A stretch of DNA of 64,000 nucleotides from Psammoneis japonica (taxonomy: Eukaryota). The DNA lies in NCBI GenBank assembly GCA_008632985.1, contig QPGO01000154.1:62001-126000 (forward strand). Reading direction: 5' to 3'. Numbering within the stretch: the first letter of the stretch is position 1; every line of letters starts with the position of its first letter. The notes beneath the pieces were generated by a model. The model worked only from the letters and a program-made list of their open reading frames with translations. It did not search any database and was not told the origin of the DNA. Both the position numbers and the translations under genes were made by a program. Shown here in pieces: positions 36,235-62,900 of the stretch.

Positions 36235-36389
36235 GTTCTCCTCTTGATGGAAGAATTGAGCCCCCGATGTGTACCTCAGTGAAACGATGTGGATATAGAG
36301 AGCGGACGGGACTATACAGTAGTGGCAGCCGAGGGTGTTGTCCGGCATGTAGCACCGAGACACAAGATCAAGAACAGCGTCACCTACCG

Positions 36390-39300: not shown

Positions 39301-39700
39301 TGGTGTGTTTTCATCGTCAGATCAGAGGCGACAACTTCATTTTGTTGCCAGTTTTGTTGCCGGCAACCAATGTGGACGGAGATTGCTGCAACGTGCAAGT
39401 TTCGCAGAAATTGAATCTTTTTTGTGCAGCCGCAGTGCACAATCCCACGTGAACTTTTCGTTCGACGAACATTGAGAACATCATTTGAGAGATGTTGAAT
39501 CTTTTTCACCCAGCTCTGGTGCACAATCCCACGTGAATTTTTCGTCCTACGGGGAATCAACACGAGCGACTCAACATTGAACAAATTTCACGGAAATTGA
39601 ATCTTTTTTGCACAGCCGCAGTGCACAATCCTACGTGAACTTTTCGTTCGACGAACATTGGGAACATTTGAGAGGCCATTGAATCTTTTTCACGTTGCTC
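36390..39700. other. TAY-depleted (A-to-G hypermutated) block 1
   Basis: TA dinucleotides almost vanish after about 36,390. Repeat units carry ca/tg where sister units carry ta. Confidence 0.85.
37265..38697. repeat. Array of about 182-bp units (about 7) plus a unique end segment; mutated copy of a probable non-autonomous element
   Basis: ttgaatcttttttg recurs at 37548, 37737, 37919, 38101, 38283 and about 38464. End segment 38520-38697 matches 40565-40747. Confidence 0.9.
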
Positions 39701-40747: not shown

Positions 40748-40764
40748 AGCTACCATAGCCTGAT

Positions 40765-40942
40765 TGTATTGAGGTTTTCTACTGTACAGAAAAACCGTGG
40801 CACCACCAGGATTTACCAGTGATTACTGTAAGCACAGTATTGAGGTTTTCTACAAAACACCTTTGGCACTATCCGTAGTCTCTCGCATCTCACTGTATTG
40901 AAGTTCTCTGCGGCCGTACAAAACACCTGTGGCACTACCAAG
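40765..40942. repeat. Three degenerate copies of gtattgaggttttctac..aaaac..tggcactacc
   Basis: Copies start near 40766, 40837 and 40895. Confidence 0.65.
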
Positions 40943-40959
40943 ACTTACCTACCAATACC

Positions 40960-42869
40960 ATGAATCCTTGCTCGCATTTGCCATCATCTATTTTCCTGGT
41001 GTTCTGGGTCGTAACAAAGTTTGCTCGGTGCACGGGAGAAGTCAACCTACCGCTCGGGGACGTGAACGTTTTGATCGTGACAGACACTCACGGATGGGTG
41101 GGAGGTCATGGCTTTCACGAACCAGAACTCAATGCGGATTATGGAGATGTCTTGTCCTTTTATGAACGATTGAAGCACATGTGCCACGAACGGGGGAAGA
41201 GCTTGTACTTTGTTATGAATGGTGACTTTGTCCATGGCACAGGACTGTCACGAAACCCACCGAGAGAGCTTGAACCTTTGCTTGAAAAAATGCCATGGGA
41301 TGCCGTTAACGTTGGAAACCATGAATTACAGGAAGACGAAACAGTGGAATTTATAATGAGACCAGCCGGATTTGTTGATTGGTTCGGTGATGCATATCTC
41401 ACATCTAATGGTGAGTCCGCGCGGTTTCCCGGCTGCTTCTGCTCTGGTTGCATCATTTTGAGTTTCTGACAAAGTTATTATGCCGCAGTTGTGCGAGCTG
41501 CATCGGGACGGCCTCTTGGACAAAGATATCGCTTGTTGCAAGGGCGGTTTCAAGAATCAACAATCCTTATTTTTGGGTTTCTTTTCAATCAAGAGGATGC
41601 TAGCCCCCTGGTCGAAGTCGAGCTCGTCGAAGACGTAGTGAAGTCGAATTGGTTTGTTTCTGCGCTGCGTGACAACTCATTTGACGCAATTGTTGTCATG
41701 GCGCACATGGATGTTCAAGACCCGCTTGTTTTTGTTATCTTGTCTGCGATTCGCAAAGTGTGTGGCAAAGGTATGTCCGAGATTCTGTCATTGGGCCGAG
41801 GTAGCAGAGTTGAAGTCTCATCATTGACCTTTCCTTTTCGACGAACGCCTGGAACGAAGACATGCCAGTTCAGTTCATCACTGGTCATACCCATTATAGA
41901 GCACACGCAATGCTGGATAACGCTAGTTGCTCCTTTGAGGCTGGAAGGTTCTTGGATACTGTCGGGTTTGTCTCTCTAAATTTAACCACAGGCGTCAACT
42001 CAACGGAGCGTTTTAACCACGTCTTTTTGGATGCCAACAAGGATATACTTCGAGATACATTGGGAGTCCCCACATTAGCCACTGAAGCTGGTACGGAGCT
42101 GTCAGAGTTCATTCGCGATACTCAGGAAGCACTTGGACTTCTGAATGTAGCTGGCTGTTCACCGAATCGCTTTTACGAGAACATAGCCATGAACGAGACG
42201 AACTCTCTCTGGGGTTTGTATTTCAATCAAGTCGTTCCAACTCAATTTTTCAAGGGCGACACGTCAAAGGTGTTGGTTCAGAGGGTGTCGTGGTTCTTTC
42301 GTTACGATTTGTGGGACGGAAGTGTGAGAGTTTCTGACATTGATGCGGTTGTCCCAGAGGACGAATCCCTTTATTTCATTGCAAAAGATGTCAAAGGCTC
42401 TATCATCAAGAAGCTGGTGAATACGCTGGCACGCGAAGAGGAATACAGAAACGGGACACTGCCTTCATTTTGGTATTCAGGAGTGGTAGAGGATGACGAC
42501 ACATACGAGTTGTACACGATCGGCAAGGACGTCCCTCGAGTCAAATATGCTTTGAGCGATATGGACGCGTCATCTGATCCACAAGAGCTCTACGAAGGAA
42601 ACACAACAGTGCGCACTCTTTGGGAGGGATTTGTGACCGAGTTCTGGCCATGCCACGGTAACAAGCACGTCCCTACATCATCAGGATCGGGCAACAAAAA
42701 CAGCGACGCCGGCGGCTCTGACGGTGCGTCAGCAATCACAAAGATAACCATCGTGACCATTTTAGCAGTAGCCATTGTATTTGTTGTTCGGAATGTACCG
42801 AGATGGCGCCGTCGTTATGACACTGAATTTATTCCTGAACCGGAGGGACATGTTGCCCTTGTAGTCTAA
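40960..42869 (+). CDS. Secreted/membrane-anchored 5'-nucleotidase-like metallophosphoesterase; introns 41411-41488 and 41771-41859
   Basis: Signal peptide, TDTHGW, NGDFVHGTG, VGNHEL, AHM, TGHTH and a C-terminal TM helix. Both introns keep frame. Confidence 0.88.
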
Positions 42870-44563
42870 CACGCCGGAAACGCAGGAACGTGAGCGTTAC
42901 GGCAATTAAGATTTAACTTTCTCTGTCATTTTAGACTACAGCATATGCCCGAGTCTCGCTTTCGGAGAATCCTCCAAGGAAAGGTTTTCCATAACGTTAC
43001 GTTAACGTAGCAAAATTGTTACGGACTCCGTAACGAAACGCAATGTTTGAGAACAATCAAGTTGGATCGGATTTGCCAATTTCTAATTTGTGATAACAAA
43101 AACTAGAGGCTACTCGACAACCAAAAACCAAAGAAAGAAAACAATAAGTGACTCGTCCTTGTGCTGGAGCCAACACAGATGAACGTGCACCAACGACTTG
43201 TCAGGAACGAGAAGTTCTTGGTTACATAAAACAAGAAGAGAGGTTGGGCTCCATTCTCGTTTTGAACTTTGGACCTCTCAAGTGGCATCGGTTGTTTGAT
43301 CTGTGATTGGTTGAGACGTTGATGGCGGTCTTTGTTTGTGGCGGTCTTTGTGACTCGTAGCTTGAGGCACAACACATGAATAATTTCAAACTCCCTCATG
43401 CCGAAAGGTCCGAGTTGTCACCACCCATGCGATTGCGCACGAATGCAGGCAAGTCGGGCATTTTACATGGTCAAGAGATCAGCCTGCCAAAGCTCAGTGC
43501 TGACAGCCTCAATCAATGGGTGCCCATTGGCAACTTCTGAGTGGAAGCAGTGGCAGACATTGTTGATGTGATGAGTTCTGGCCCTCATCTTGGGCACCCT
43601 GGCAGCTCAGCTGCCGAGTTGTCCTCGATCAATTTGCAGAAAATGGGTGGAGTCACAATTGCTGGGCAAGCTGTTTGTTGATTTCCTCCAACAAGCACGT
43701 GGATGCTTTCACATGCTGAGTGGCAGCTGACAAAGGCAAGTGCTCACTCTCACTGCTGCTGAGAACAAGCTGGGTCTGCAGCTTGGATGGCCAGTGGGTG
43801 GGAGCTTCTCTCCATGCTTGACAGCACAGCCACTGTGAGACTTTGCTGCTTCAGGATCTTCAGCCATGATTGTCTTGTTCCAATTGCCATGGAAACTGGC
43901 ACCAGACTGCTGAAAAACCATTTTCTTTGTCAGGTGGGACATGGGCACACTAGCCCTTGTCACGGGCATTCAACAGGAGCCAGCCAATGTGCTCGCCACA
44001 TGCAATGCCATGAGATTGCTTTGGGCTCTGGCGGTGGTGAGGCTGAGCCACTTCGTTGGTTGTGTGTGTGGTGTGTGTGGTGTCAGGCCAATTGGACTTC
44101 TCCAGGAAGCTCACTTTCCCCATCACCAACTGGCAGACAGCAGAGTCAAATCTGCACTTTGGGTGCTGTCACATCTGGACACTGGCCCCAGCAGATTAAC
44201 CCGCCACACTCCCATCCACCAGCATGCCAGTTGGCATGGCAGGATTGTCCACAGGACAATCTGTCCATTTTGTTTCCAGTCAAACAGGAAATTGGCCAGA
44301 GATGCTTGTCTTTGCACAGCTGACTGTGTTGGAAGAGAAGAGAAGCCCCAAAACAATGGCCAAATTGTTGTCCAAAACAAGGCCAGAGCACAAGTCTAGT
44401 CACCGCATTTCCCACAAATCTGTTTGTGAGCTCCAAGATTCATGGAGGCAGCTTTTCCACTTGTGGACCTCACGTGTGTGGACTTGGTGCTTGGACTTCA
44501 TCAACTGCGTCACTGGCAAAATGGTTTCATCCTCTTGGGCACATCTGCTTTTTCACAAAGCTC

Positions 44564-45737
44564 TGACCCTGCATCTCCTTGATCATGGCTTTTTTAGCTG
44601 GGTGGCAACTGGCTGGATCACAGCTTTGTGCAGGTGCACGGCACAAGGGTTGGCAAATGCTTTCATGGGGTGCACAAGGACAGAGCAATTAAGCTCTGAC
44701 TCAACATCCTGTTCCTCTGAGTGCATGTCTTGGTTCATTGTGTTAAACTTGACACCCCATGAGAGACAAGGCCAGCTTGCCATTGCAACTCTGACTCTGT
44801 CATGTGTCATGTCAGCTGAGCTGTGTGCCCAGACCTGGTTGTCCACACAGGTGGCAGTGGCTCTGGTTCTGGAGCACCTAAATCAGGTGTGGCAATTCAG
44901 GGGTTTCAGACACTCTTTTGCTCATTGCATCTGTTGCAACTCCCTTGTTTGGGATTTGGGGTTGTTTCCTCTGGAATGAGTGCTTGCCAAGGGACATCAG
45001 CTCTTTTGGCCTGGTGAGGAGAGACATTCATTTGTCACATCTTGATCTGCATCTTCTGCTCAATCTTTTCATCAGGTCATGGCTGCACTTTCAAGTCTTG
45101 GAGGTGACATGTCTCTTGCCAGTGGGACTCAACTGCACACTGCTGGGTGCTGAGCATCTTGAACAAGTTGTCAAATCTCAAATGATGCTGAGGTGTGTGA
45201 GACCACACCCTTTGTGAAGTTCAACACAAGAGTGGTGGAATGAGAGTGTTGTGGTGATGACAATCCAAGATGCAGACCAACTCAAGAGCATGAGCCCCAC
45301 TTTGGAACAGGCTTGCTCAACTGCAGCTTGTTGTTGAGAAGAAAGTGCCAAATTTTGGGTTTTGTGGGTGCTCTCATGAAAAGCTAAATTGGAGATGAAT
45401 TTTGCCCAGTTGCAGGGATGCAGTTGTGCACAGCATTTGCATGTTGGATGACACAAGGCTGTGCTGGGAGACCTCTGCCACTGCCTTTGGCCATCAATGC
45501 TCCTTGGCATGAATGAGTTGAGGTTGTGCTGAACATTGCAAATCACAATTTTTTTTGGTGGCACCACTCTGGAAATGAGAGTTGACTTCAAAAAATGAAA
45601 TCACCTGACTCACATCTTTGATCACAGATGGATGTGTGCTGTGAGCAAAATGGCCATTGTTGAATGACAGCAGCACATGTGCTTGCTCCCAGAAAACAAA
45701 AATGAGACTCAAAAGCATGTTTTGGCTGCAACAGTCT
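44564..45737 (+). repeat. Dispersed repeat of about 1.15 kb, copy A
   Basis: Collinear matches with 53021-54130: ctgcatctccttgatcatggc, cttgatctgcatcttctgctcaatcttttcat, gtgacatgtctcttgccagtggg, aatgagactcaaaa. Confidence 0.85.
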
Positions 45738-48700
45738 CAGCTCCAGTGCAAGGGTTGTTTGCAGGCAGACAAAAGAGAAACTGCTGTGATGATTGATCAT
45801 TGTGGTTGCATGGCAACATCCTTTTTGTTGCTGCACAATCTTTCAATTGACCACCAACAATGCCTGGGGTTGTTGCACCCAGCTGATTGACTGATGCACA
45901 CAGCCCAGACTTTGCACCCATGAACATTTTGCACTGTGTTGTGTTGCTTTTGACTTTCCAAGGTGCTTTTGTCACTTTTGCAAATCAACAGGCAGCACAT
46001 TGAGAAACATGACACTCAGCAAGTTGTCAAGGCAGACTCCATTTCAAGCCACAGCCTGGATTGGAGAGAGTGAAAGATGACTGAGTTGATGGCGCCAAAG
46101 TGAAAATTCATGCAAAGAGCCCGCTGGAGCAATTGGCTCATCATCTTAAAAAGCTGGAGCTTTGTCAGAATCATTCATTGAGAGGTTAAAACAAACAGCA
46201 CTGTTGCTGGACAAAGGAGCCAACTTGTTGGTGGCAACAGTTGCATCGCAGCTCACAGGAGTGGCATGGCCACAGATGGGGACTTTGTCAGCAGGAACAG
46301 CAAAATGATGTGAACAATGCTTGGCATGTCCTGATGGCCTGATGGGTGGAGAAGCATGTGCAGAAGCAACAGCAACATCAGGGTGCCATTGTTTTGGGTG
46401 AAGAGAGAGGTTGCCTGGAAAGCACAATTTTTTTGTGTTGACAAAAGCTGGAGGTTTGGCACAGTGCTTGAAGGGGCTTAAAAGATGGGGAAGAGTGAAA
46501 GACACTGATGTTGCTGGCCAACCATGTGAGTTTCTGACCCACCTGTTCAAGTGTCATGCTCTTGTTCATTTTCACAGAACAAGTCCCTTTGTGGGGGGTG
46601 GTTCACTCTTGCAGCTTGAGAGTTTGAGTCAGGTGTTGCAGAGACAGGCAGGAGCCACATTGGCAGCAGGTCGAGGATGCAGTGGATGCCAAGAATGCAA
46701 AGTGAGGTTTCTCTCCATGATCCTCTTTTGTGTGTTTCAATGAACAGCTCCTTTGCATGAGGCTGGAGTGCTGCCCAACATGAACTGCATGCTCACATTG
46801 ACCTTGGCTGGTGACAAAAGGAGTTTAGACTTTGAGCTTGTGAAACAACAAGAAGCATGCTGGTCATCAATGCCAGCAGGAAATGAGTCAGTGTCGAAGC
46901 TGTCATCATTGCAGGTGTGACATGGTGGTGTCCATTGGCAGCAGGGAAGCATCCAACAACATGCTCACAGGCAATGTGGGCACAGACTGCCATGTGCATG
47001 ATGCGTGCACCATGTGTGCAATGAACACAGTGACTGTGACACAGGTGGAGTGAGGCTTGCATCAATTTTGATGCCGCTTGACATGGGGCTTGAGGCCAGT
47101 GTCAAAGCAGAGTGGGGGTCGGGCCAAGTCAGCAGACAAGGAGGACAAGAGATCACATGCACTGCAAACCAAGTTGGCTGCAATGGGAGTTGCTTTTGTC
47201 AACAGCAATTCCAGAATCTCATCAGAGCAAGCCAGAATTGCAAGTGGCGCAACAAGCAGAGTGCAGCACAGATCAAATCCAAACCTGCCCACCACTTTTG
47301 TTCATGGCTGGGCTCATCAGACACATCCTTGATGCCTGGGTTGGCGATGAAAGTGACCAGTGCATTGGAGGTTGGCCAAGAGAAAGTGTCTTGGGAGCAG
47401 CTCTGCTTGGCTCTCCACTTGGCATGGCAACCCTTGTTGAAGTGTTTGCCCCAACAGCCATGGAACTTGAAAATTTTCCACCTCTTCTTGTTCCTTTTGG
47501 GCCCTGACACAGCAGCAAAGAAGGGCAAAATGTGTCCAGCACAGAGCACAGCCTGCCTTGCACACATGTGCTTTGCTGTTGGTGAAGCCCACCATCAGTG
47601 CATTGCATGCCAGTGGCCTCATGCTCCTGGCCAATTGCACATTGACTTGAGCCAAATCCACCATTGCCAAAGGTGAAATTGGTCACTTTGTGATGTGCTC
47701 ATTGGATCCATGCTTGTCCATCAGCAGCAGAATTGCTTTGTGACACCTGTGCATTTGCTCAATGCATGCAAGTGTTTTGCCAAAGATGGTGTGCTTGCTT
47801 GAAAAGATGATTGGGCACCTTTTTCTTCATCATCACAACCGCCGCTGAATCCTTGCCTTCTTGCCTGTGCCACACCCATCAAGCTGCCCGCTGACAGCCT
47901 TCAAGGAACACTCCATTTGATGGAGACAGCCTTGGGAAGAAAAAAATGAAAATGTGGTGATCGCAGTTGTTGTGTTGAACAGGGAGGTTGTGTGTGAGGG
48001 TGGGGCATCATTGTGTTGTTGGCAAGTGACCATTGCGCTCAACAAACACAGAGACACTTGCAAGTCATGGCTCATGATCAAGACGGCATTGAAACAACAA
48101 GGATCAGGTGAGCCAGAGAGCAGTGGTCATTGCAGCAGAGTGTTTGCTTGGACAGTGGCTGACAACAGCCGCGGCAGGTTTTGTGTTGTCAGCAGCTGCA
48201 GACTTGGATCAGTCAGATTCAATGAGCTTCAAACACAGAAAAGAAGAAATTGTTGCATTGAAATGCAGCCACAAAATGTTCAACCAGCTTGTTTGTTGTT
48301 TGTTGCAGCAGATCCCACTCACATGCAAGAGCCCGGGGCAACGCTTGTCTTTCTCTGCGGGGGTGTTGTCAGGCTGGATCATTTTTGTTCCAAAACATCA
48401 CAGTTGGGAAAACCACAGAGTCCAACAATCAAACAAGTGGAAACAGTGTGATGCACTCATTTGCTGTGAAAGAAATGTCACTCTGTCACAACTCACAACA
48501 CTGTGAAAGAGACCTGTTGGGGCACACAACCAAGGACAGATCGTCTCAAGTGGAAAGGTGTCTGCTTTTCGCAATTTCGTAATTTTTTGAAAAACCGTGT
48601 TCGCCAGAAAAAATTGAAAATTTCAAATTTCAGCTTTGAAGTTGTCCCTCCGACAAGGCGGGTGCGGCGATGGTGGCGGCGATGATGGATGATGCGATGG

Positions 48701-48961
48701 CGACATCGCAGCAGAAGCACACCAAGCTTGCAATTCATTCACTGCTGTTGTTTCACAGTCTGGCCTGTGAATTTTCTTTTCACTGCCGGTGTTGCTGCGT
48801 TGTTGCGCTCCACAAACTCCGCAACAGCATTCTTGCCGATTGGGAGATGAATGAACGCCCATGCGCTGTCATCTGAGGGAGCCTCCTCCTCAAGTGCAAG
48901 GAACCATGCTGTCAGATTGCCTCGTGGCGGTGCATTCTTTCACTCGGACAGCAAACTCAAG

Positions 48962-50075
48962 ATGGCGCGCACTGCGTTGGACGAGGCATCACAAGACGGC
49001 GCGTTCAAGAGACGGGAGGCGTCTTGGCAGAACTGGATCAGCAGAGGTGAGTGTGCGTCTGTGCAGAGGTCACTGTGACTCTCTAGAAAAAACTTCTTGC
49101 TTTTCTCTTTTGTGCTGCAACCCAATCATGACAGAAAAAGGAGCTCGATTCCCTCCAGAAAAGAATCACTGTCATTTGTGTGTTGCCTGTGCATGCCCGT
49201 GGGCTCATCAGACTTTGCTGATGCAGGCTCTAAAGGGGCTGGAAGACAGCATTTCCATCACTGTGGTGCACCCTGTTTGGTGCAAGACAAGGCCCGACGA
49301 CGAAAGTGATGAACACCATGGGTGGGTGTTTGGCAATCCTGACGGAGAAGAGTTTCACAACACCATTGGTTTGGGTGGGCCTTTCCCCGAGGCTCTTCCG
49401 GGCAACAACCCAGATCCTTTTTTTAGCTCCTTCAGTGTGAGAGATTTGCATGAAGAAGCCAAGGACACAGATGGCAAGTGCACGGTCCCCATCCTGTGGG
49501 ATGCCAAGCTGGGTGCCATTGTCAGCAACAAATCCTCGGAAATCATGCAAGTGCTCAACTCGGAATTCAAAGATTTTGCAAAGAATCCAGATGTTGACTT
49601 CTACCCTGAGGAGTTGCAGACGGCAATTGACAGTGTCAATGACTGGATCTGTCTGACTGTCAACAATGGCGTTTGCTGTTGCGGCTTTGCAACTTCGCAG
49701 CAGGCTTGCGACAAGGCAATTGAGCAGTTGACGGATTCATTTGATCGAATTGACTCCATCCTTCAGAAGCAACGATTCATTGCAGGTGACAAAATGATGG
49801 AAGCCGACATTCATTTGTTTGTGACGTTGCTTCGATTTGATGAAGTTTGCATTGTTTGCTTTAAAGCCAACACCCGCAGCGTTGCCTTGACTCCGGCAAT
49901 TGTCAACTGCATGCAAGAGATCCACCAGACACCAGGAGTTGCGGACACAGTCAACATGGATCAAATCAAGATGCACTGTGTCGCCTCTCATCCAGATTTA
50001 AACTGCTGGTCAATTGTTCCTCGTGGACCTGACTCATCAAGTTGCTTCAGAAGCCACACAATCGATCGGAGGTGA
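48962..50075 (+). pseudogene. Glutathionyl-hydroquinone reductase (GST Xi/omega-like, YqjG/ECM4 family) inactivated by hypermutation; intron 49047-49134
   Basis: CPWAH, LKGLE, TVPILWD, NNGV..CGFA, LLRFD and SHP motifs. Conserved Tyr appear as Cys/His and conserved Arg as Gln/His/Cys. Apparent 1-nt frameshift after GPD. Confidence 0.9.
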
Positions 50076-53020
50076 GCCAAGAAATTGAACACAGCCCAGC
50101 AGCAAGCAAAAGAGTTTGTCAAACTTTCATGCAAGTGGCATTGCCCGAAATGAGTGCATGATGCAGTTTCAATGGCGACAAAGATTTGTCTCGTTTGCAT
50201 TTGTAAGTTGTTGCTGTTGTGGAATGTCTTGAACCGTGGCCGATGACATGTCATCCTGATCGGATTGCCCACAACCATTGGACAGCTTTTCAAGTTAAAA
50301 GTCAACTGATGGAGCACACAAAAGATTCTTGGAAGCACTCGTTGACCAATGTCGGTCACCAAGACACTGTGAAGCACTAAAAAGTCAAGAAAGAATGTTT
50401 GCATGAAGGAAGATAGATCGCATCAAACATGAGTTGAAACCAACATGCCACGCGCACATGCCACAAAGTCAGCTCTCTAGTCTAAATGACGAATGGCAGA
50501 TTTGATGTTGAGTGGGATTGCCCCATGCATTTCTTTTTTCTGTTCTAAATTGCTTGGCACTTGTCTTAATTTTTACTTGCAACAATCGAGAGTGAATTCT
50601 GTGATTCGGTGAGTTGGTCATGACCAACTGGACAGCTCCAGTTGGTTCCCTCACCACAGTGAATCAAGGCATCACAGATGCCTCCTCATGTTGCAAAGTG
50701 GAATTCTTCCCTTGATTGCTTCCCAACAATGATGCGGATTGTGCCTGACGATGATGAGCCTGGACCCTTTCCTTGCGCTTGGCGGCTTGCACTTCCTGAT
50801 GCATGTGGAGAAAAAACGGAACATCTTCGGCCAGTCGATGACGACGGAGCTTCTTCTGAGCAGCGGGCTTTTCGTTTGTGCCAAAGCGACGGGCATTGAT
50901 GAGATTTTTACGTGCCAATGCTTGTGTCTTTCGGCGATCGAAGGGAGAGTCATGTTCCTTGTCCTTCGAACGTTTGCTCTTGTGGACTTTGCGGATGGTG
51001 CGTTTGCAAGTGGTCATGGCGGTTTTGGCACTTTCGTTTCACGAGAAGAGTCTTCAACGTCATCAGAATGGCTGGCAGTGCTCGATCGCTTTCTCTTTCC
51101 ATTGTTCGACTGCTCGATGGGAAACTGGATTAGAAACATCTTGGATGGCTTGGTCTCAAGGACTCGGACAGTCGCGACGCACGTCTCGTCAACGCTCGAA
51201 ATTTGAATGGCTTGCTTCAACGCGATGAAGACGGCAAAGGCAAAGAGCTCATGTTCGATGGGGAACAGAACAGCACCGTCAACGATGGCAAAGAGCGCCA
51301 TGGTGAAAAGAAGAAGAGAGGTCTGCATGATGATTGACAGCAGCAAGATGCAAGTCAATGCTTGATCAGGTGGTCAAGTTTGGAATTGTGAGAGGATCAG
51401 CGTGATTGCTGTTTCGAAGGCTTGCCCGGACAGGATTGCCTCAACATGCCAGGTGTTGCATGGCTTCTACGGGAAGTTGTCATCTGTCGAAGTGCGTCAT
51501 CAGCAAAAGCAGGCTGGCAGGTTTTGTTCACAAAATGCGACAGCACCAACTTCACACCATGCTGTGCACTGATTTGTGTGCAGAGCTCACAAACACTCAT
51601 CAAACTTTACAAACACGAATTAAAATGATCATTGTGTGTGTGTGTGGCAGTGATGCAAAGAATGTGCATGAAACAAAAGTTGTGGGGATTGGGCGGAAGC
51701 TCTTTTGCGATGTTGATCACGCGCACGCGCTTGCGTGCTTGCGCATGCAGCGTCATGTGGCGCTGGCCACTCTGGCTAGACAGCTGCAGCAGCAGCTCTC
51801 TAGCTAGAGCAGAGCAGTTGAACACGTTCATTTTTGCGTTGCTCGTTTGCTTGGCTTGATTGGCGCTGGCCCACAAAATGAATGAAGCAGTCAACAAGAC
51901 ATGCAGCGCTTTTTTGTGGGTCAATGAGTGCGACTGGAAAAAGATGAGATGCCAAAATCAGGCAGAGAAGAGGAGCAAAGCACAGCTCTGCACCCCCACC
52001 TCCTTTTCTCTGAGAAACAAAAGTTTTTTGTGCACCATCTCAAGTCTGGCTGTCTCACCTCCTTGGTGCAGTCAACAAATGATGGAATCACTTGAAAGAA
52101 GTCACTTTTCAATGGCCAGACAGCCTGCTTTTTGAGCATGCGTTGTGGGCAGAAGAGCGGCCACACAGGGGTGCAGAGTGGCATGCAAAATGCACACACA
52201 AAACACAAAGAGTGCAGCACAGTGGACAGAACCAGCATCATGAAGTCTGTGGCTCATGACACAAGTTTTGAAAAGTGCAGGTTGGCAGTTTGTGTGGCAA
52301 TGGCAGAAGCCTGGGTGCTGGCCACAGCTTCAAAATCAAATCCTCCACCCAGCATGATTCAGAGACAAGTTCACAGGGTGTCCAAATGTGCAGCTCTTGT
52401 GAGCAAGTGGAGGGCACAACACTGTTTTTGTTTTCCATTGGCTCTCATCAGCTCTCAGAAGTCAGGGGCAATGTTTTGAACCTGGCTTGCATTGCTGTTG
52501 ATTTTTTGTTGAACCCCATCTGTTGCTTCTTCTGTTTTTCATTGGCGCGCCAATTTGGACTCAAAGAATGATGTGTCTGTTGGCACTGCACATGTTGCTG
52601 TGAGTCACTGGGAAAGTGCATCATGCAGCACTCTTCAAGGATTGCTTGCAGCTTCATGTTTGTCTCAGTCTTCAGGTCAGTTGTGTGATGCTGCAACAGC
52701 ATGTTTTGCTTTGGAGCCAGTTTGATTTGCAGAGCAAGTCTCAATCTCCCTCTTGACCACAGAGAGGTGTCAATCATTCTGCACCTGACTCTCCATTCTC
52801 TGCTCTCAGCACCTGCTCTTTTTGCTGCTTGGATGGGTGCCAATGGCTCAGATCATGGGTCGCCAGCACCAGTTTGTGACACTGGACATTGCTGCCTCCT
52901 TTTTGGGGGGTGCTGAGCACACTGCGCAATTGAGGCTGCAGGCTTTTTGAAGCCAGGTCAAGCAAAGGTTGGGCACACCCACTTTCCTTCTTGCAAAGCT
53001 CCCAGTGGTCTCATGCAGAG

Positions 53021-54130
53021 TGATCCTGCATCTCCTTGATCATGGCTTCTTTGAAATGGGTGGCACTTTGCAGCTTTGTGCAGGTGCACAGCACTGGGAT
53101 TGGCCAGCGCTTTTGTGGAATGTGCAGCAATGAGGCCATCATGCTGACTCTGACTCAAGGTCCTGTTCTGAGCACATGTTTTGGCCCGGTGCATTAAATT
53201 CAACCCCTCAAGAGACTGTGTTGGCTTGTCTTGCAATCTCCAATTTCTGTCATGCACTGTGCTGGCTGAACTGTGCGTGGCCATCTGCACAGGTGGCAGC
53301 GGCTCCAGCTCAGGAGCACCAAACTCAGGTGGCAGCCCAGGGTTTCAGACTCTCCCTCACTCCTTGCAGCAATTGCATCTCCCTCTCATTTGGTGTTTTT
53401 TCCTCTGAAGAATGAGTGCTTGCTGAGGGACATCAGCTCTCTTGTTGCTGAGGAGTGAGATTGGCTCACAAGGTCTTGATCTGCATCTTCTGCTCAATCT
53501 TTTCATTGAGTTGTGGTTGCACTTTTGAGTCTCAAAAGTGACATGTCTCTTGCCAGTGGGGCTCAACCAGGCAGGACCTGAGCATCTTGAACAAATTGAC
53601 AAATCCCAGATCATGCTGAGGTGCAAGACCATGCCCGTCATTGAGTTCAGTGCAAGAGCAACAGAGTGCAAATGCCATGGTGATGGTCCACCAAGGTGCA
53701 GACCAACTGAAGAGCATGAACCCCACTTTGGCACAGACTTGCTTGATTGCAGCTTGTTGTCAAGAACACAGATTGGACATGCAAATGGATGAAAGGGCCA
53801 AATTTTAGTTTTTTGGGTGCATTCATGTGAAGTGCTCAATTGGAGGTGTGTCTTGCCCAGTTGCAGGGGGATGCAGTTGTGCACAGCACTTGCGTGTTGG
53901 ATGGCACACGACCATGGGGTGACCACTGCCTTTGGCCATTGATGCTTGGCATGGGTGAGTTGAGTTTGTGCTGACCACAACAGGGGGGAAGCTGATTTGC
54001 ACCTGTCTTTGCAGATGGATGTGCTTGAAGTGAGCAAAATGGCTGTCATTGGCATGACAGCAGCAAGTCCAAGTGCTTGCTCCTAGAAAACAAGAATGAG
54101 ACTCAAAACCACACTTGGTTGCAACAGTCT
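53021..54130 (+). repeat. Dispersed repeat of about 1.1 kb, copy B
   Basis: Diverged direct copy of 44564-45737. Confidence 0.85.
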
Positions 54131-56199
54131 TGACCCCAACAAGGGAGAAACATGGGCTCAGTGGACCAACTGTGTGTGCCAGCAGAAGATTGACTTTTTT
54201 GTGACTCTGTGGAGTTTCTCATTTTGAATGACTGAGTGCAAGAAAGCTTTTAAGCAGAGCATTTCCTTTTGGTTGCAACAGAGCCAACAGTGGCACACAC
54301 ACAGAACATGTCAAAAATGACCTCTGCCAGGTTTCAACATGTGAGCCAATGTGATTTTTTCCATTGGCCCCTTCATGGAGACATGGCCGGAGAAGCCAAT
54401 GTTGCACAGTTGGTGCAACAAGAGACTGTTTGAGTGCAACAATTAAAAAATTTGATGAGGGTCAATCCTCTGAACCAAAGAGCTTGCACACACAGGAGGT
54501 CCACCAGCAGGCAGCTTTGATGAGGGCTGCCTGGACACACTCACAAGTGCCCCGGCCGGGGTGCTCAGAGGCACTGCAAAAAAACACAAGGGAAGTGCGG
54601 GAGAATTGCAAAACCATGAGCTGTCAAAAAAATGCCTCTGCTCACTGATCCATCCTCACCTGCCTGCCTGTGGTGAACAACCAAAAATCAAAAAATGGAC
54701 AAAACGGACTCACTTTCTCCCTCTGCCACCAAATTGAATCTTGCTCATGACCAACCACCTTGCACTGCACTGCATCAACCAGCAACCAGGCATCCACATG
54801 CCGGTGCATGCAGTCCACTGCAGATGCCATCTCCATCTCAGCACTGATGCAAGATGCGAGTGCACTTTCTTCTTTCTTCTTGACTGCAACAAACCTCTCA
54901 AGAGCAAAGTGCACCATGAAGACACCACCCACCCACCTCCGTTCAGCAGTCACTGGCGGTGGTCCTGGAGGCATTTTCTTTTGCCGTGCTCTGGCAACAT
55001 GCCAACCAAGAGCTGCAAGCAGAGAGAGGTTCAAAAGCACAAGCTTTGCTGCAGTTTGCAACTTGCTTGGAGCATGTTGCTGCAGTTGGAGGAGTTTGGA
55101 GAAGTCAACGAACCTTCACCAAAAATGACAAGGAAGATTCTGGCAAGGAAAATGACAGCAACAACAACAACAATGATGATCTTGGCAACAAGTCATGTCA
55201 GCTGAGACTGGTCAAAACCACAAACATGTCTTGTGGGTTGGCGGCAGATGTCCCGCCAAAGACTTCACTCATGGGCATCAAGTGCAAAGCAAAATGAGTC
55301 TGTGTTGGCAGAAGCTCCAACAACAATGTCATCACGTGGACAAGCAGCTGGCCTCAAGACAAGGTGGAGCCAAACAACCACCTGCTGCCTTGGCAGAAGA
55401 TGGCAAAGTCATTCAATTTGCCAAGGCCAATCATGTCTTTTGGACAAGCACAAAATGTGATGCGAGATTGCATCCAAGGTTTGTGACATTGACACCACAA
55501 TCTTTTGCATGGGGTGTGCTCCCAACTTGGACATGTTGGACAAAAAATTGCGCAAGCCACACGCTGAGCAACAAGCTGGTGCAGGAGGCATGTTGGTGCT
55601 CTCTAGACTCACTCTACAAACAAGACTTGGGGAAGTGTCACACAGGTTCACAAACAGTCAATTTCTCCAAAACGTTTGTCACACTGCACCAACAAATCGG
55701 TGACAGGCACATTCTTTCCCACACAACAACAATCTGCGGGCAGCAGCATGGTTGTTGCTGCTGCTCAGGCTTGCCAAATGCAAAAAAAACATTCTTTTTC
55801 TTTCTCACGTGTGTGATGCAACCCAAGAAACAATGCTGCCACCAACAGAATGCACCATCTGTCAAAAACCCTTTTCCCATCTTGCTTTTGCTTTGTGCGC
55901 GGGTTGCTCTTCCACCGCTTCAGCCCCATCACACCCGCTCACCTTGTGAACAAAGCACAGGGCTGCACAACCATGTGATGCAATTGGGTTGTTGCAAGCT
56001 TGCCAGCTCAAGCTTTTTTTGATTTGTGGAGCCATGGAGGCAAGCCAGCAAGCTCAGATCCCCCTTCTCGTTTCATGCTGGACCCCCCCAAAAGCTCAAA
56101 ATCTCCCCAAGCCATCCAGCGCGCACTTTCCAAATGATTGGCACAAATGGTGGCTTGACTCTTGATCTTGTCATGGCAGGAAAACTTGTCCTTTGCATT

Positions 56200-56840
56200 G
56201 ACAAGCATGGGTGATGTCTTGGCAGCTCTGGCCTCGTCAACAATCTTTCTGTTTCAGCCTCGCACTCGAGCAGATCCTTGAGCAAACTGGGCCAGCAGTG
56301 CTGAGCCATTTCGCCATTGCCACGAATCTTCATTTTTGTTCAATCACAACTGGAGTCACCCCTTTGCAACCCAGTGTGGCAACAAAATCATCATTTTTGC
56401 AAACGAGTGTTTGAAGCAACTCACAAGCGCGTTTGAAGACATCCTTGTCAAACTGCTCACTTTTCACAACCTTCAGGACCGTGCCAACAAGAGAAGGGTG
56501 CTTTTGCAGACAACATTTTTGGCATGGGAATTGCAGAGTGAAATGTGGTTGAGCATGTGCACAGTGCATTGTCGTTTCTTTTGTCGACTGAGGGAGTTGT
56601 CAACGCCTGTCAGCGAAAGGCCGCGCCCATGCGCACCAACAACTTCGCTGCAGCAATGCAAGCATGGATCATCAATGGCACCCTCATCCATGAGCAAAGT
56701 GGCAAGATCTTTTGCAGCTTTGGAAATGGCCTCAAAGCCATCTCTCCATGCACAAAGCCTCGCACAAGAGCTTGGATGAACCCGATGCTCTCGAATCTTT
56801 TTGCATCTCTGATGCTTTGCATTTTCGATCACTGGCAGTG
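56200..56840 (-). pseudogene. Degraded helical (ARM-like) protein gene fragment
   Basis: Broken frames FEAISKAAKDLATLLMDEG / VGTVLKVVKSEQFDKDVFKRACELLQTLVCKNDDFVATLGCKGVTPVVIE look amphipathic-helical. Confidence 0.3.
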
Positions 56841-58299
56841 TTCATCTTCAATTCGGTGGTTTGGGGGTGGCGGTGGCTGCTTTGCACTGTGGCAGGTGAC
56901 AGCGATGCTGTGGAGCAACCAGCAACCCTACGATGACGACTTCTGCTTGTCTCATCCATCCGGCAACAACAATCTTCCGCTTTCACTTGGCTTCCATTTA
57001 CCGGCATTTTGATTTTTGTTTTTTGCTTTGCGTTGCTTGCTTCCTTTCAGCTTGTAGAATTATTTCTACGTACATTCTACCTACAGTACAAAGACACGTA
57101 CACGCCTACTGCACACTTTGCAATCTAATAGTCGCGCACGTACAATCAATATCCAGACCGGCGCCTATTATAGGCGCTGGCTGGCTCAAGGGCTGGCTCG
57201 CTCCCGCTCAGTGATGGGTGATGGAACCTGTTCGGTCTGGGTCTCTTTCCATGGCGTTGGTACTCTAGCTCTACTAGCATTGAAGCAAGCGTCTGGTGGT
57301 AACCTCCGTCAAGCACGATTGGGGTCTCCAAAGAACATGATGATATGGTTTCATTTGGCAGTCGCTCTGGAACGATTGGAGAAAGCTAAAGACAGAAGAC
57401 AGAATTGATGGACATGCTACGTCGCTGCGAAGCCGAGCACTTGCTTGGCTAGTCGATTCTTGGGGCTACATTCGTTGGCATACTCGCAAAATCCCCTCCA
57501 CAAGAACAATCTGTACTACGGTGGTTCACGTGATAAGCTGCAAATTGCGCTCGACGCTGCTGAACCTCTCGTCAAGCAGAGCGGGTGGCTGTATGAATTT
57601 GCGTGGCGCCTTCTAATGCAGATGACCCCAACCTTTCCGCGGAAGTGCGGATTAAATCTGACGAGTCGTCAAAAGAACGACCCTGTGAACGTTTGCTTTT
57701 GCTCCCTTTCTTCTCACGAAGGCATTGACTGACTTTTTCAAACGCGTCCTCGTGAGACACCACCGTCCAAACATGTTGCCTCTCATTCTTTTCTCATGAA
57801 TCTTCCTGGAGGAGAGAGACCTTGAATCTCGAAATCAACAAAGAGTACAAGCTTCCTTTCAATCTAGACGACTCACGTCCAATCGTCGTTTTGTTCATGC
57901 CGCGAGTCAAGAGAGTTCGGATGAAATCATGGGCAGCAGTCATCGCCATAATAACGACCTGGACGGAGTTTGTCGCCATCTCGAATTGCCAAATCCTATC
58001 GAATGCAATGTATGAAAAATAATGGGGTGACCACTGCCAATACCAATTCTACTACTCAGAAACAACAATAGTATGGCTCGTATCAAGAGGATGACTTGTT
58101 AACGTCGTCTACAAACGACGATGACGGTACGCTAACATGTGTTGGACAAGTGGTTGCTGGTAGTCGTGCTCCCAAGACTTTCAATCATGATGATTCTTGT
58201 GCAGCCAATAATGATGCCAAACAGAGTTGGTTGAATCAAGGTGGTGGCGGTGATCAACACCGTAATTCCGCGTCACTGTTGCCGCATCAAAACAGTGTC

Positions 58300-59964: not shown

Positions 59965-62900
59965 CGACAATGGTGTCCGCTCATCCGACAGCGATTTGAG
60001 GTGGTTGATGGGAGCGAGGAGATGATGAACACTGGAAAGCAAGAGAGTCCATCGAACGAAACATCGAAAGCATGTCATCCTGACAATGCATTTTTCGAGT
60101 TGTTGGATTCAAGTTCAGACTCCTCTTGGTCTTGTCCCGACGACGCGGAAAGCAGGAGGTTTTCCGACGATTCTTCTTTTGATCTTGTTGATGCTCCCCC
60201 GAAAGCCAAAATCCAGTCGATCTGTCAGAGCACAGTCTTGTCGACGAGTGATTGACCTGTGGCAGCAGCGACGACGAAGAGGAAAATGAACAAAACCGCC
60301 TGCCGAAAAGGTCTCCAAACCACATCTTTTCGTCTGATTCTAAGAGCGGAGGGAGCGACACAGAAACAACGGGCACTGGTTTGAAAAGCAGTCCACACAT
60401 CAATTTGTCTGTTGAAGAGCCTCTTTTGGATTTGAGCAAAGTCGTTGTCGGCACGCCAACAAGAGCACCGACTTTCCCGAGAAACAAGGATTCACAAACG
60501 ACGCAATTTTTTCTTGACGACTCTGGCTCGGAAAGCAATGGAATGTCAAATGCACTGAGCTGCCTTGGCAAATCGCATCGACATTGATGATGATGAATCC
60601 GTTCAATGTCTCGCCGGGGCCACCTCCCATTTCTCAATTGACGACGGCTCCACATGTGGTGGAGAAGAGAAGCGGCTGCCCCACCTTCGACTGCCAAGCC
60701 AGCACCGCTCCAAACAACGACCGAACTCCATTCGGCCTGAAGTGCAAAGTTGCTCTCTGCTTCTGCATTTCAGACATCGTGAGAAGAAACCGCTCATTGC
60801 ATCAGAGTGCACGACATCGCAATGTCTGCACACATGACAAAAATGTGTTGCCACATCATGAAATCTGCTTGTCTGCACACAACGGTTTTTGTCATTTGGC
60901 CAATTGTTGATCTCCTGCTGTTCTTCATGTTTGAACACAGATGTTTTTTAATTTTTGTGCTCTGCCTTTTTCACAACAACTGACGATCTTTGACGACAAG
61001 CCAAACATTGCAACTGCATGCAATGAAATTTTCATCATGCAAAGTGTGGCCAATTGTTTGGTCAACAACTGTGCTCCAATTTGCCTGGTTGCCCGCATTG
61101 TCCGCTTCATTCCACATGTCTTGTCTGCTCTCTTGCAAGAATTTCAAATGTGCCGCTGCTGCGTTGGATGTTTCCTTGTCACCATTCCAAAAAAGCCACA
61201 CTGCATTTCTTGCATTTGGGTGAACATCATCGAGAGGAAGAGGTCCCTCGAAATGCTGAATCGTGTCGCTGCTCCCCTCTTGACGTCATGTCCTTGGCTT
61301 CTTTTTCTCTTTCTTCATTTTGCCCGTCCTGTTTTTCTCTTCCTTCCTCTCGTCTTGGTGCCGCCTGTTTTCACCGTCTCCGGCATCTTTCCATCCGAAT
61401 CCTTCTTTTTCATCGATCCCGTGCCGTCGCCTTCATCTCTTGTTGTTGTTGTTTTTTTTCTGTTGGGTGTCACTTTGTTTTGGATCCATGTTTCTGACTT
61501 CTCTCTGTGCTGTCTCCATTTCTGAGTGTTTCTTTGTGATTGTTCGCACGCGTCACTTGAAGGCACCCATGTGTTTTTCACGCACCTTGACGCACATGTA
61601 GAAATCCATGTTGTTTTCCAGTGCATGCACCCTTTCTCCTGATGCTGTTCCACACAATGTTTTCTTCCATCAACTCCACACTCCGTGTTGCCCTTTCCCG
61701 GCATGATCTCATGCAGGATTTCCCTGGGAGAAGTCACATGTGCGTCTGGTGGGTTTTTGTGTTTAAAACTCCAAATCGCACCAGGCGCGTGTGTGACTTC
61801 TCCCACACACCACTCTGGCACATTTCCACAGAAACCAGATTTTTTGGTGTTGGAACAGCAACCATGGCACCGCGTGACCTGTCGGTCACCTCTCTGTTGC
61901 AAGACAACAAACAATTCCCACCTCGAGGAGGCCGCATTTGAGTCTCTCTTTGCCAATGGTTTTGGAGTGATCAACAGCAACGAGCAGAGCCACGTCAAAG
62001 TGACAATCGAGACGGTGAAATCCAAGGTTCAGTTTCACCGCGATTCCACTTGTGACCCCTCTCCGAATTGGATTGCGCTTGCCTGTGTGTGGCAAAAGTT
62101 GAAGGGCAGACCTCATTTTTTTGCAGAGCTGATGGCTGTGAACACATTGTTGCAAAGGAACTTGGGCACAAGAGCTTGCTGCACTTTCTTTCCGCAAAAG
62201 GATGGAGTCACTCCAGTCAAGGCGCCAAACATCCTCATGTGTTGGAGCATCACCGTGCTCCCAAAGCAGAGGACATGAAAGGCATCAGCGACAAGGCAAA
62301 ATCAACAGACATTGCAACCAACATGATGGCAAAGATTTCCATGTTGCACAAGCTTCTCCATGATCCCGGATTGTGCAACCCAAAGGGAGAGCCACTTGTC
62401 AAGCACATTGAGCTGAGAAGTTTTGAAGGGAAGGTTTTGCGTCACGCACAACACCTTCACATTGGTTTTTTGATTCTTCGTGACAAGATTCTGCCGTGCG
62501 CACCTGAAAGGAATGGCGACTGCGATCATTGGCTGCACTCCCTGTTCGGCAAATGTGACGAGACATCGACTTGCATCAACTTTTTGGAGAATTTCCTGGC
62601 TCTTGGTCACTGTGAGACAACCAAAGACGAATGACCCATGTCCTTCCCTGAATTCGTAAAGTCGTTGTTCCGCCAACACAAAAATTCTTGGGAAAAGCCT
62701 GTGCGACTGGCGATGCTCGATGTCGAGCGAGAACAAATGCGCGCAACACATGTCGATGAGACTCTTTTAAGATGTGTGAAAATTGATCGTGTGGTTTCTG
62801 CCACTGACGATTCAGGCAAAAGCAAGGCTGCAAGGGATCGTTTTGAGGCCATGTGGAAAGCCAGGCTTTGTGACTTTGCCACTCAGCACAAGAAGAAAGA

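Follow-up and report, generated by a model that had tools for sequence, protein, structure and literature searches.

Flanking bases set the pace of TpA loss in TA-poor blocks of a contig from the diatom Psammoneis japonica

The TA-poor blocks in the window, a stretch of 64,000 nucleotides from Psammoneis japonica (contig QPGO01000154.1), have lost TpA to TpG and CpA at rates that depend on the flanking bases. The change runs in one direction, follows the sequence context, is additive over the two strands, takes place in situ and stops at sharp domain edges. The reading that we favour, at a probability of roughly 0.7, is a directed TpA to TpG/CpA mutation in position-defined silent chromosomal domains adjoining transcribed genes, with the flank bias as its footprint.

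The main TA-poor block (43480–56920) retains 43 TA, consisting of TTAA (14), CTAG (9), CTAA (6), TTAG (5) and nine sites that are not YTAR (Y, pyrimidine; R, purine). In 2-kb bins, rho(TA) is 0.02–0.13 within the block as compared to 0.43–0.73 in unaffected bins. CA and TG are approximately doubled (to 1.55–2.11), and the G+C content stays at about 0.48 throughout. The edges of the block are sharp at the resolution of 500-bp bins. An earlier note on this DNA had described the leftover TA as mostly YTAR, and the counts agree, with a YTAR share of 34/43 in the block against 300/1750 outside (odds ratio 18, Fisher p = 4e-18). Its quoted examples are all present: CTAG (TA at 44397), CTAG with CTAA (50478 and 50483) and CTAGCTAG (51801 and 51805), as is the quoted exception, ttcTAc at 49602. 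TA is under-represented genome-wide (rho 0.43–0.73 outside the blocks), and YTAR is the rarest TA class there too.

Sorted by flank, the main block holds no RTAY, 3 RTAR, 6 YTAY and 34 YTAR; the outside reference, 42,602 bases of gene-rich DNA, holds 512, 487, 450 and 300, respectively. This is the predicted order of RTAY below RTAR and YTAY, with both far below YTAR. Survival relative to the outside density is 0 (RTAY), 0.020 (RTAR), 0.042 (YTAY) and 0.359 (YTAR), or 0, 0.019, 0.038 and 0.325 after normalisation to the YR steps in the respective flank class. Ancestral TA numbers were estimated from the gene-rich outside DNA, with a direct ancestor proxy for 67 TA sites and 11 Tyr codons only. 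The flank pattern recurs in the blocks at ~36500–39600 and 60000–64000 (pooled over the blocks: RTAY 0, RTAR 8, YTAY 12, YTAR 44). YTAR had been taken as a class with no target, but it is reduced to ~0.33–0.36 of expectation, and 7/9 YTAR sites are converted to TG or CA in the repeat pair described below. The flank effect is thus quantitative, and YTAR is the slowest-lost class rather than an immune one.

In an additive two-strand model, two rates describe the counts better than one (LRT p = 1.6e-20). The ratio of the rates for a pyrimidine and a purine 3' of the A (kY/kR) is 6.1 (95% 4.1–9.5) in the main block and 4.6 (3.4–6.5) in the pooled blocks. The 3' pyrimidine is a rate preference, about five times faster. 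Of the need for a 5' T and a 3' pyrimidine that the earlier note had proposed, the specificity for TA and the advantage of TAY stand, but the 3' pyrimidine is a ~4–6-fold preference and no requirement. The two strands of a TA step behave independently, and the suggestion that both strands are acted upon is supported. Among ~161 RTAY, the two-rate model expects 0.35 survivors (CC 0.11, CT 0.16, TT 0.08) and none is observed; the fit is poor at the AG class (11 observed, 16 fitted). When the rate is allowed to vary by 3' base, the values are 4.5 for T, 2.6 for C, 0.64 for G and 0.39 for A (p = 0.04 over two rates, with few survivors). Surviving half-sites with a pyrimidine at +1 show a T:C ratio of 4:16, compared with 889:1073 outside (p = 0.024, again with few survivors), and T appears ahead of C as the 3' neighbour of the converted A. 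An A at +2 further shields TA from change, an effect absent from the earlier note; the counts are 63/108 against 475/1538 (p = 1.6e-8).

The products indicate which adenine changes. At one-flank sites (RTAR and YTAY) that can be scored directly (the repeat pair and the Tyr codons of a gene copy), the A with the 3' pyrimidine is the converted one in 31/39. In the repeat pair, RTAR gives 16 CA and 3 TG, YTAY gives 7 TG and 4 CA, and the symmetric RTAY gives 10 TG and 8 CA; the 7:4 ratio for YTAY is weaker than the ~5:1 of the model. Conserved Tyr codons preceded by a pyrimidine in the gene copy have become TGY in eight cases and CAY in one. By mass balance, ~209 and ~200 lost one-flank TA are recovered as RCAR plus YTGY rather than RTGR plus YCAY, at ratios of ~6.9:1 and ~11:1 (CG loss divided evenly between both products). 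This direction fits 5'-TAY-3' as the preferred A-to-G site, and the converted base behaves as the A of 5'-TA-3'.

An internal comparison is provided by a second TA-poor block (36500–39600), in which CG is mostly kept. It begins at the 5' end of a gene on the minus strand (34756–36405) and ends inside a tandem array. The segment 37412–38697 (plus strand; tandem units of ~80 and ~102 bases with flank) lies in this block and is 87% identical to a TA-normal twin at 39465–40747 (plus strand), which serves as ancestor proxy. Where the normal copy has its 67 TA, the TA-poor copy has 6 TA, 25 TG, 30 CA and 6 other states, so that 55 of the 61 changed sites are TG or CA; these sites are not independent, because a position comes back in successive tandem units and the aligned units are possibly non-orthologous. 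TA is kept at 6/67, the other 15 dinucleotides at 56–97%, and 91% of TA but 34% of CG is changed. The 143 substitutions comprise A>G 41, T>C 39, C>T 22, G>A 18 and 23 transversions; most of those other than A>G and T>C are CpG transitions. Along the array, the near-identical units pass from mutated ones (39410 and 39596, the first of the twin) through a partly mutated one (39678) to intact ones (39780 to 40566), which places the domain edge within the array. CA and TG occur as alternative outcomes at the same repeat position. The mutation occurs in place and depends on position. Within the main block, an old direct repeat (44564–45737 and 53021–54130, both plus strand, 70% identical) pairs CA with TG at 27 aligned dinucleotides, which indicates that the two copies were converted independently once they had been duplicated. 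Indels and transversions also separate the copies of both pairs.

The main block contains a dead gene copy of a Xi-class GST (glutathionyl-hydroquinone reductase) at 48963–50075 on the plus strand, with the ATG at 48963, a GT-AG intron at 49047–49134 and a second exon that ends at the stop at 50075. Since the intron is retained, the copy was made at the DNA level rather than by retroposition. None of the 11 conserved Tyr is left (9 are now Cys and 2 His), and 7 of the 14 conserved Arg are replaced by His, Gln or Cys. The frame is still open because a change of the TA to TG/CA kind creates no stop codons. A diverged, expressed-looking paralogue aligns to the copy with 129 differences, most of which run in the directions expected; over read run X2 as a whole, the differences from window to read are C>T 30, G>A 41, A>G 20 and T>C 20. 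The earlier judgement that the pattern is not compositional drift is upheld by the mutated and unmutated twins, by the edge inside the tandem array and by the Tyr to Cys or His replacements in this gene copy.

The main block is not uniform in CG. The sub-block 43480–48500 is poor in both CG and TA (rho(CG) 0.06–0.12 in the 44001–48000 bins), and the dinucleotide bins mark a second such sub-block at 51900–56000. The central segment (48500–51900), which carries the GST copy along with a multi-copy repeat whose word depth reaches 619 (bin 50675–51341), is TA-poor with much CG left and holds 7/9 of the non-YTAR survivors of the block. We read 43480–48500 as older DNA that has also decayed at CpG and 48500–51900 as a younger or less exposed part. 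A third TA-poor block (60000–64000) continues past the end of the window and keeps part of its CG. The CG-to-TG/CA loss of the two sub-blocks, absent from the earlier note, looks like a separate, slower decay. Relative to the outside density, CG remains at 0.18 (RCGY), 0.14 (one-flank) and 0.10 (YCGR), without flank dependence. It is probably decay of methylated CpG, which the replacement of 7 of the 14 conserved Arg in the GST copy also fits. Such decay covers the CG loss only, whereas the TA loss is faster and also found in blocks that keep CG. The blocks consist of non-genic DNA, the tandem array, the dead gene copy and the multi-copy repeat; none of their 37 open reading frames matches a viral or transposon Pfam family, reverse transcriptase included.

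The TA-poor blocks are no assembly quirk, given that a contig of 4362 bases from read run X1, possibly the assembly's own data, covers 40708–45069 across the block edge with 0 differences. The word depth in X1 is similar on both sides of the edge (~60–70). Heavily modified DNA, such as DNA carrying a modified A at TA and a methylated C at CG, could in principle be misread in sequencing or consensus, leaving TA and CG really intact. Strand-dependent miscalls would look much like what is observed, in that the two palindromic YR steps both become CA/TG and a given repeat position can show either product. The read runs found are all from one sample. Such a misreading is nonetheless very unlikely in view of the exact match of the X1 contigs at even depth, the GST paralogue with its differences in the expected directions, the indels and transversions between copies, a context rule and product asymmetry unlike a generic miscall, and the real-time TpA mutation on record in another alga (main text of 10.64898/2026.01.13.699255). 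Foreign or structural DNA that intrinsically avoids TA, for instance under selection against TA-targeting transposons or nucleases, would agree with the low TA genome-wide and with the rarity of YTAR outside. We find this scarcely credible, since identical repeat units differ only by their position relative to the domain edge, and the destruction of every conserved Tyr at unchanged G+C is decay and not selection. The blocks might instead be retro-copies of transcripts that had undergone ADAR-like A-to-I editing before reverse transcription and insertion; both strands are affected, and a 5' U preference is typical of ADAR (main text of 10.64898/2026.01.13.699255). An edited transcript-derived copy fails on the GT-AG intron of the GST copy, on a domain edge inside a tandem array whose unmutated units continue beyond it and on the lack of a reverse-transcriptase domain among the 37 reading frames. 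The 3' neighbour preferred by ADAR is G, as opposed to the pyrimidine preferred here, and the route is very improbable.

We infer that the responsible agent of the directed mutation is an enzyme, most likely a DNA-acting adenine deaminase with a T-A-Y preference, and that its targeting operates via chromatin state or silencing and not via sequence homology. Each TA step would offer two adenines, one per strand, and each would be converted to G independently. The rate would be set by the 3' base of the adenine, a pyrimidine being ~5 times faster than a purine (probably T > C > G >= A), with a further slowing by A at +2. The base 5' of the T would then have no effect other than as the 3' neighbour of the adenine on the opposite strand. 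RTAY would be the first to vanish because it has two fast adenines, RTAR and YTAY would be nearly gone because they have one each, and YTAR would persist at about one-third because both its adenines are slow. The chemistry would probably be adenine deamination to hypoxanthine, which is read as G. The converse chemistry, in which oxidation or some other alteration of the T of 5'-RTA-3' leads to its being read or repaired as C, would make the TAY rule the complement of an RTA rule; as A-to-G on one strand is T-to-C on the other, all counts fit both equally. We regard it as unlikely, since adenine deamination is a one-step route to the transition and the Bigelowiella natans authors propose an adenosine deaminase (main text of 10.64898/2026.01.13.699255), and since a T/U at −1 is a known trait of TadA/ADAT editing in the account of PMC10027721. 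At sequence level, a mutator preference and context-dependent repair also look alike, so that all TpA might be mutated equally, with lesions or mismatches at YTAR, especially TYTARA, repaired back better. The partial loss of YTAR, including the 7/9 conversions in the repeat pair, is a quantitative effect of the kind that repair would give. The one-flank products (31:8) and the mass balance (~7–11:1) would, however, demand that repair tell apart the two adenines of one TA by their own 3' neighbours. Repair of that kind is conceivable, but an enzyme preference would account for the bias more economically, and we hold the repair explanation to be decidedly improbable.

The closest known case is the TpA hypermutation of the chlorarachniophyte Bigelowiella natans. 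According to the main text of the report (Mettrop et al., bioRxiv 10.64898/2026.01.13.699255), A>G/T>C changes arise in real time in the integrated viral DNA of mutation-accumulation lines, and at TpA only, with giant-virus and virophage insertions as targets. Both systems show almost only A>G/T>C, from TpA to TpG/CpA, in local regions that are TA-poor and rich in CA plus TG, with nearby genes spared. The host here is a diatom, however, and the targets are non-genic DNA, a tandem array and a gene copy in place of viral insertions, with no viral or transposon domain among the 37 reading frames. The depletion (rho 0.02–0.13) is far deeper than the 0.45 given for their NCLDV region, and it is known here from sequence, whereas theirs was followed in real time. 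Their main text gives no flank rule (the words 'context', 'flanking' and 'trinucleotide' do not occur); the supplements, including the table of mutated sites, may hold one.

As in repeat-induced point mutation (RIP), non-genic or duplicated DNA is inactivated by transition hypermutation at particular dinucleotides, in tracts with sharp edges. RIP, in Neurospora and other ascomycetes, changes C to T at CpA, which makes TpA and lowers G+C; it is triggered by duplication and mutates both copies. The direction here is the opposite, with TpA destroyed, CA/TG doubled and G+C unchanged, and the repeated tandem units at 39780–40566 are intact while those left of ~39680 are mutated. RIP was rejected on these two grounds. 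TadA/ADAT enzymes act on RNA hairpin loops and favour U at −1; bacterial TadA favours UACG, and A/G is the enriched +1 neighbour in fungal ADAT-type editing, as summarised in PMC10027721. The TA-specific loss in the diatom agrees with T/U directly 5' of the edited A and, as in bacterial TadA, with a pyrimidine at +1, which is the opposite of the fungal editing. It differs from bacterial TadA in that T at +1 serves no less well than C and there is no preference for TACG (7/16 surviving TAC half-sites against 268/1073 outside, p = 0.14).

The 2026 preprint on that unrelated alga is the one earlier report of natural, targeted A:T-to-G:C hypermutation in nuclear DNA, and its main text gives no sequence rule beyond TpA. 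A quantitative flank rule tells an enzyme-like process from drift and predicts both unequal products at one-flank sites and which site classes disappear before others. It is a biochemical fingerprint for testing candidate deaminases, could identify the responsible enzyme and is of use in detecting and dating affected DNA in other genomes. As a tentative proposal, to which we give somewhat short of even odds, diatoms, and perhaps with Bigelowiella a wide span of SAR, may carry a chromatin-guided DNA adenine deaminase that permanently silences non-genic or invading DNA by erasing TpA, a 'reverse RIP', with the site preference 5'-T-A-Y (T over C) and with R at +1 and A at +2 disfavoured. If so, the enzyme would be a natural DNA adenine editor. 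Genes caught in TA-poor domains die by Tyr-to-Cys/His replacement while their frames stay open. DNA free of TA lacks the stops TAA and TAG and so displays long spurious open reading frames, which is a caution for annotation.

The 64-kb window is eukaryotic, encoding an EMC1 C-terminal domain, a patatin-like phospholipase and an M16 peptidase, and its G+C content is about 0.48 all along its length. Three sharp-edged blocks within it are nearly devoid of TA: block 1 at ~36500-39600, the main block at 43480-56920, and a third that starts at 60000 and runs off the window. The main block has rho(TA) of 0.02-0.13 in 2-kb bins, compared with 0.43-0.73 in unaffected ones, and its CA and TG are raised to 1.55-2.11. 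The sub-blocks 43500-48500 and 52000-56000 are poor in CG as well (rho(CG) 0.06-0.22); much of the CG is retained in the middle of the main block (48500-51900) and in the other two blocks. The domain edges adjoin transcription units. Block 1 starts at the 5' end of the gene 34756-36405, and the main block starts about 600 bases past the last exon (end near 42883) of the gene 40724-42883, which carries a calcineurin-like phosphoesterase domain. Stop-to-stop open reading frames (ORFs) of at least 110 aa number 75 in 36400-64000, in all frames; the long ones in the blocks occur in every frame because TA-free DNA has no TAA or TAG, and over-prediction by gene callers is to be expected there. A Pfam scan of 37 such ORFs in 36036-64000 left 36 with no match, the sole match being Metallophos (40879-41469), outside the blocks.

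The blocks have lost TA through a transition process specific to TpA: it works in place within domains, its effects on the two strands add up, and the +1 and +2 bases bias it. Comparison of the window with itself gave a TA-poor segment (37412-38697) and a TA-normal twin (39465-40747), both on the forward strand, 2 kb apart and 87% identical. The normal copy, taken as a proxy for the ancestor, has 67 TA, which in the TA-poor copy are 6 TA, 25 TG, 30 CA and 6 other. The two copies differ by 41 A>G, 39 T>C, 22 C>T and 18 G>A transitions and by 23 transversions; other dinucleotides are retained at 56-97%, CG at 60/91. Both segments are built of ~80- and 102-base tandem units, and a unit-by-unit comparison places the boundary of the TA-poor domain within the second array: mutation is evident in the units at 39410 and 39596 and partial in that at 39678, and those from 39780 on have the full TA set. 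As near-identical units differ in fate by position alone, intrinsic avoidance of TA is excluded and a homology trigger of the kind known from RIP is argued against; RIP would be triggered by homology, whereas the tandem units here are mutated or intact according to position. This domain edge within a tandem array, with its position-dependent action in place, is new. The ~80- and 102-base units alternate with a period of ~182 (37261-38515 and 39396-40566), the array occurring twice within a segmental duplication of ~2.05 kb. Its intact copy lies directly upstream of the transcribed gene starting near 40724, and its word depth of 135-330 suggests further genomic copies.

The TA that is left depends strongly on its flanks. 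A TA flanked as RTAY presents two TAY trinucleotides, one on each strand, RTAR and YTAY present one (one-flank sites) and YTAR presents none. The main block retains 43 TA, 34 of them YTAR (TTAA 14, CTAG 9, CTAA 6, TTAG 5) compared with 300/1750 outside (p=4e-18), which bears out the earlier note's reading that survivors are mostly YTAR; every example that it quoted was found in the sequence. Counts for RTAY, RTAR, YTAY and YTAR are 0, 3, 6 and 34 in the main block versus 512, 487, 450 and 300 in the 42.6 kb outside, a survival relative to outside density of 0, 0.020, 0.042 and 0.359. The order RTAY < RTAR, YTAY << YTAR is thus as had been predicted for NTAN counts inside versus outside. Normalising by YR steps alone within each flank class, a quantity that such mutation conserves, gives 0, 0.019, 0.038 and 0.325. 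YTAR had been regarded as a non-target; it is the slowest class but is still hit, being cut to about one-third of expectation and converted at 7/9 sites in the repeat pair. Seven of the nine non-YTAR survivors of the main block sit in its central CG-retaining segment, as expected if exposure time was shorter there. In the mutated tandem units, aTCTACGTGAAC retains its TA in several units (37583, 37953, 38135, 39549, 39632), every other TA of these units being gone; enrichment of TACG among survivors, which bears on protection of aTCTACGTGAAC by the adjacent CG, has p=0.14.

A TA step contains two adenines, one per strand, and the base 5' of the T complements the 3' neighbour of the other A, so the product at a one-flank site tells which adenine was converted. 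In the twin, RTAR gave 16 CA and 3 TG and YTAY gave 7 TG and 4 CA; pyrimidine-preceded Tyr codons of a dead glutathione S-transferase (GST) gene copy in the main block gave 8 TGY and 1 CAY. The adenine with a 3' pyrimidine was therefore the converted one in 31/39 one-flank cases (twin and Tyr codons). Symmetric RTAY sites of the twin gave 10 TG and 8 CA. Mass balance agrees: ~209 and ~200 one-flank TA are missing from the blocks, and the gain is +231 and +319 in RCAR+YTGY and +68 and +136 in RTGR+YCAY, a ratio of ~6.9:1 and ~11:1 with CG loss halved between products. The proposal that the favoured site is 5'-TAY-3' on either strand is upheld by both lines of evidence.

Survival was fitted with a Poisson model that lets each adenine decay independently of the other, at a rate set by whether its 3' base is a purine (kR) or a pyrimidine (kY). 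Two rates are far superior to one (p=1.6e-20). The main block gives kR 0.51 and kY 3.07, a ratio of 6.1 (95% interval 4.1-9.5), and the three blocks together give 4.6 (3.4-6.5); the 3' pyrimidine, which had been thought to be needed, is instead a preference of about 4-6-fold. The model leaves 0.35 RTAY survivors of ~161 (CC 0.11, CT 0.16, TT 0.08); none was observed. A four-rate fit suggests T (4.5) > C (2.6) > G (0.64) > A (0.39) at +1 (p=0.04), and surviving +1-pyrimidine half-sites have T:C of 4:16 versus 889:1073 outside (p=0.024). At +1-purine half-sites, +2 is A in 63/108 survivors versus 475/1538 outside (p=1.6e-8); surviving YTAR with T at -2 or A at +2 number 39/44 versus 168/300 outside (p=2e-5). 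No separate effect of the -2 base is visible, since the slow-adenine rate is about equal in RTAR and YTAR (arithmetic from the twin and the model). Among 25 symmetric-site outcomes, no strand clustering of conversions was seen (15 runs versus 13 expected), and CA/TG is not consistently skewed along the block. Two elements are new here: the direction-resolved flank rule (the A of T-A-Y, with pyrimidine over purine ~5-fold, T over C and a protective +2 A) and the additive two-strand model, which accounts for the class order.

The main block has one recognisable gene, the GST copy, whose closest relatives are diatom proteins (Seminavis, Nitzschia, Ditylum, Skeletonema and others). The ORF at 48861-50075 (forward strand) matches Xi-class GST/glutathionyl-hydroquinone reductase; the copy itself starts at 48963. 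Its GT-AG intron (49047-49134), skipped by a contig of sequencing run X2, marks it as a DNA-level copy and not a retrocopy. In an alignment with 25 diatom homologues, all 11 conserved Tyr (columns with Tyr in at least 80%) are altered, nine to Cys (TGY) and two to His (CAY), and 7/14 conserved Arg are His, Gln or Cys (CpG transitions). The frame is still open because TA-to-TG/CA and CG-to-TG/CA changes hardly ever make stop codons. X2 also has low-depth contigs that align to the gene with 81 and 48 differences and seem to come from an unmutated paralogue that is expressed; window-to-read changes for the whole run X2 are C>T 30, G>A 41, A>G 20 and T>C 20. Word depth in run X1 is 256-619 in 49341-51341 versus ~60-70 in flanking DNA, so a multi-copy repeat includes part of the GST copy and sequence downstream; 49341-51341 gave no protein domain.

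That the pattern arose from base calling is very improbable. The sequencing data are three runs from one sample and one study, none listed as RNA. An X1 contig of 4362 bases crosses the main-block edge (40708-45069) with no differences, at a word depth of ~60-70 on either side, but X1 is possibly the assembly's own data, so its agreement is not independent support. Against an artefact stand the indels and transversions between copies, the diverged paralogue contigs in X2 and the product asymmetry at one-flank sites. X2 carries the label 'DNA?' and looks like spliced RNA: a contig of 1993 bases matches 40724-41409, 41488-41767 and 41857-42883, the gaps implying two introns (41410-41487 and 41768-41856). 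X2 cover is absent over most TA-poor DNA, a blank that was not counted as evidence. One enzyme causing both losses, of TA and of CG, was rejected as the principal explanation, as CG is kept in blocks that lost TA and its loss is slower (34% changed in the twin versus 91% for TA) and independent of a 5' T (C>T at ACG 8, TCG 4, CCG 2). CG survival by flank class (0.18, 0.14 and 0.10 of outside density) shows no flank dependence either. Our reading of the CG loss is that CpG, probably methylated, has undergone ordinary decay in the silent DNA that has lost TA.

A pattern this sharp and this tied to position does not fit compositional drift, against which the earlier note had set an enzyme. The agent of the TpA process would be an enzyme, most likely a DNA-acting adenine deaminase converting A to hypoxanthine, read as G, and a chromatin or silencing state would aim it. 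The sequence fits A-to-G at TAY and T-to-C at RTA alike, and equally an enzyme preference or biased repair. The TadA/ADAT family has T/U at -1, which is matched here. Evolved TadA base editors prefer YAC; this was not used as evidence. PMC10027721 describes a UACG preference for bacterial TadA and an enrichment of A/G at +1 for fungal ADAT-type editing; the +1 preference here (T at least equal to C, TACG not favoured) corresponds exactly to neither as described there. Text matches to 'YAC' in PMC9399415 and PMC11369719 are irrelevant.

The literature searched contained no account of TpA-erasing hypermutation in diatoms, and a preprint on Bigelowiella natans (10.64898/2026.01.13.699255) was the only account in any organism; a 'TpA' text match in PMC4504042 was the word 'Tpase'. 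According to the main text of the preprint, A>G/T>C made up 210/211 and 20/20 of the mutations that arose in two integrated viral regions of mutation-accumulation lines, all of these A>G/T>C mutations lay at TpA, clusters genome-wide are TA-poor and CA+TG-rich, and an ADAT2-like candidate is proposed. The words 'context', 'flanking' and 'trinucleotide' are absent from that main text; its supplements may hold a list of mutated sites. The TpA flank rule is real and extends, in quantitative terms, a process so far known from this one preprint, in another lineage.

An old direct repeat in the main block (44564-45737 and 53021-54130) has 70% identity and a spacing of ~8.5 kb. X1 contigs link its copies ('skips 8488', 'skips 8551'), as they would if the copies were the termini of a long element or if another copy had been collapsed elsewhere. 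At 27 aligned dinucleotides one copy has CA and the other TG; the contexts of discordant pairs (YNNY 7, YNNR 6, RNNY 3, RNNR 1) are uninformative, because ancestral TA and CG are indistinguishable there. Relatives of the neighbouring gene product (41862-42869) occur at 15 metagenome loci, 14 with 28-39% identity and one a short match (77% over 39 residues); they are too distant to say anything on spread. No TA-poor tract was seen in their ~130 kb. The lowest 1-kb value is at positions 1-1000 of locus L012 (rho TA 0.43, CA+TG 1.65, CG 0.50), a microbial mat contig with a distant relative of the neighbouring gene, and this 1-kb end has a mild form of the signature.
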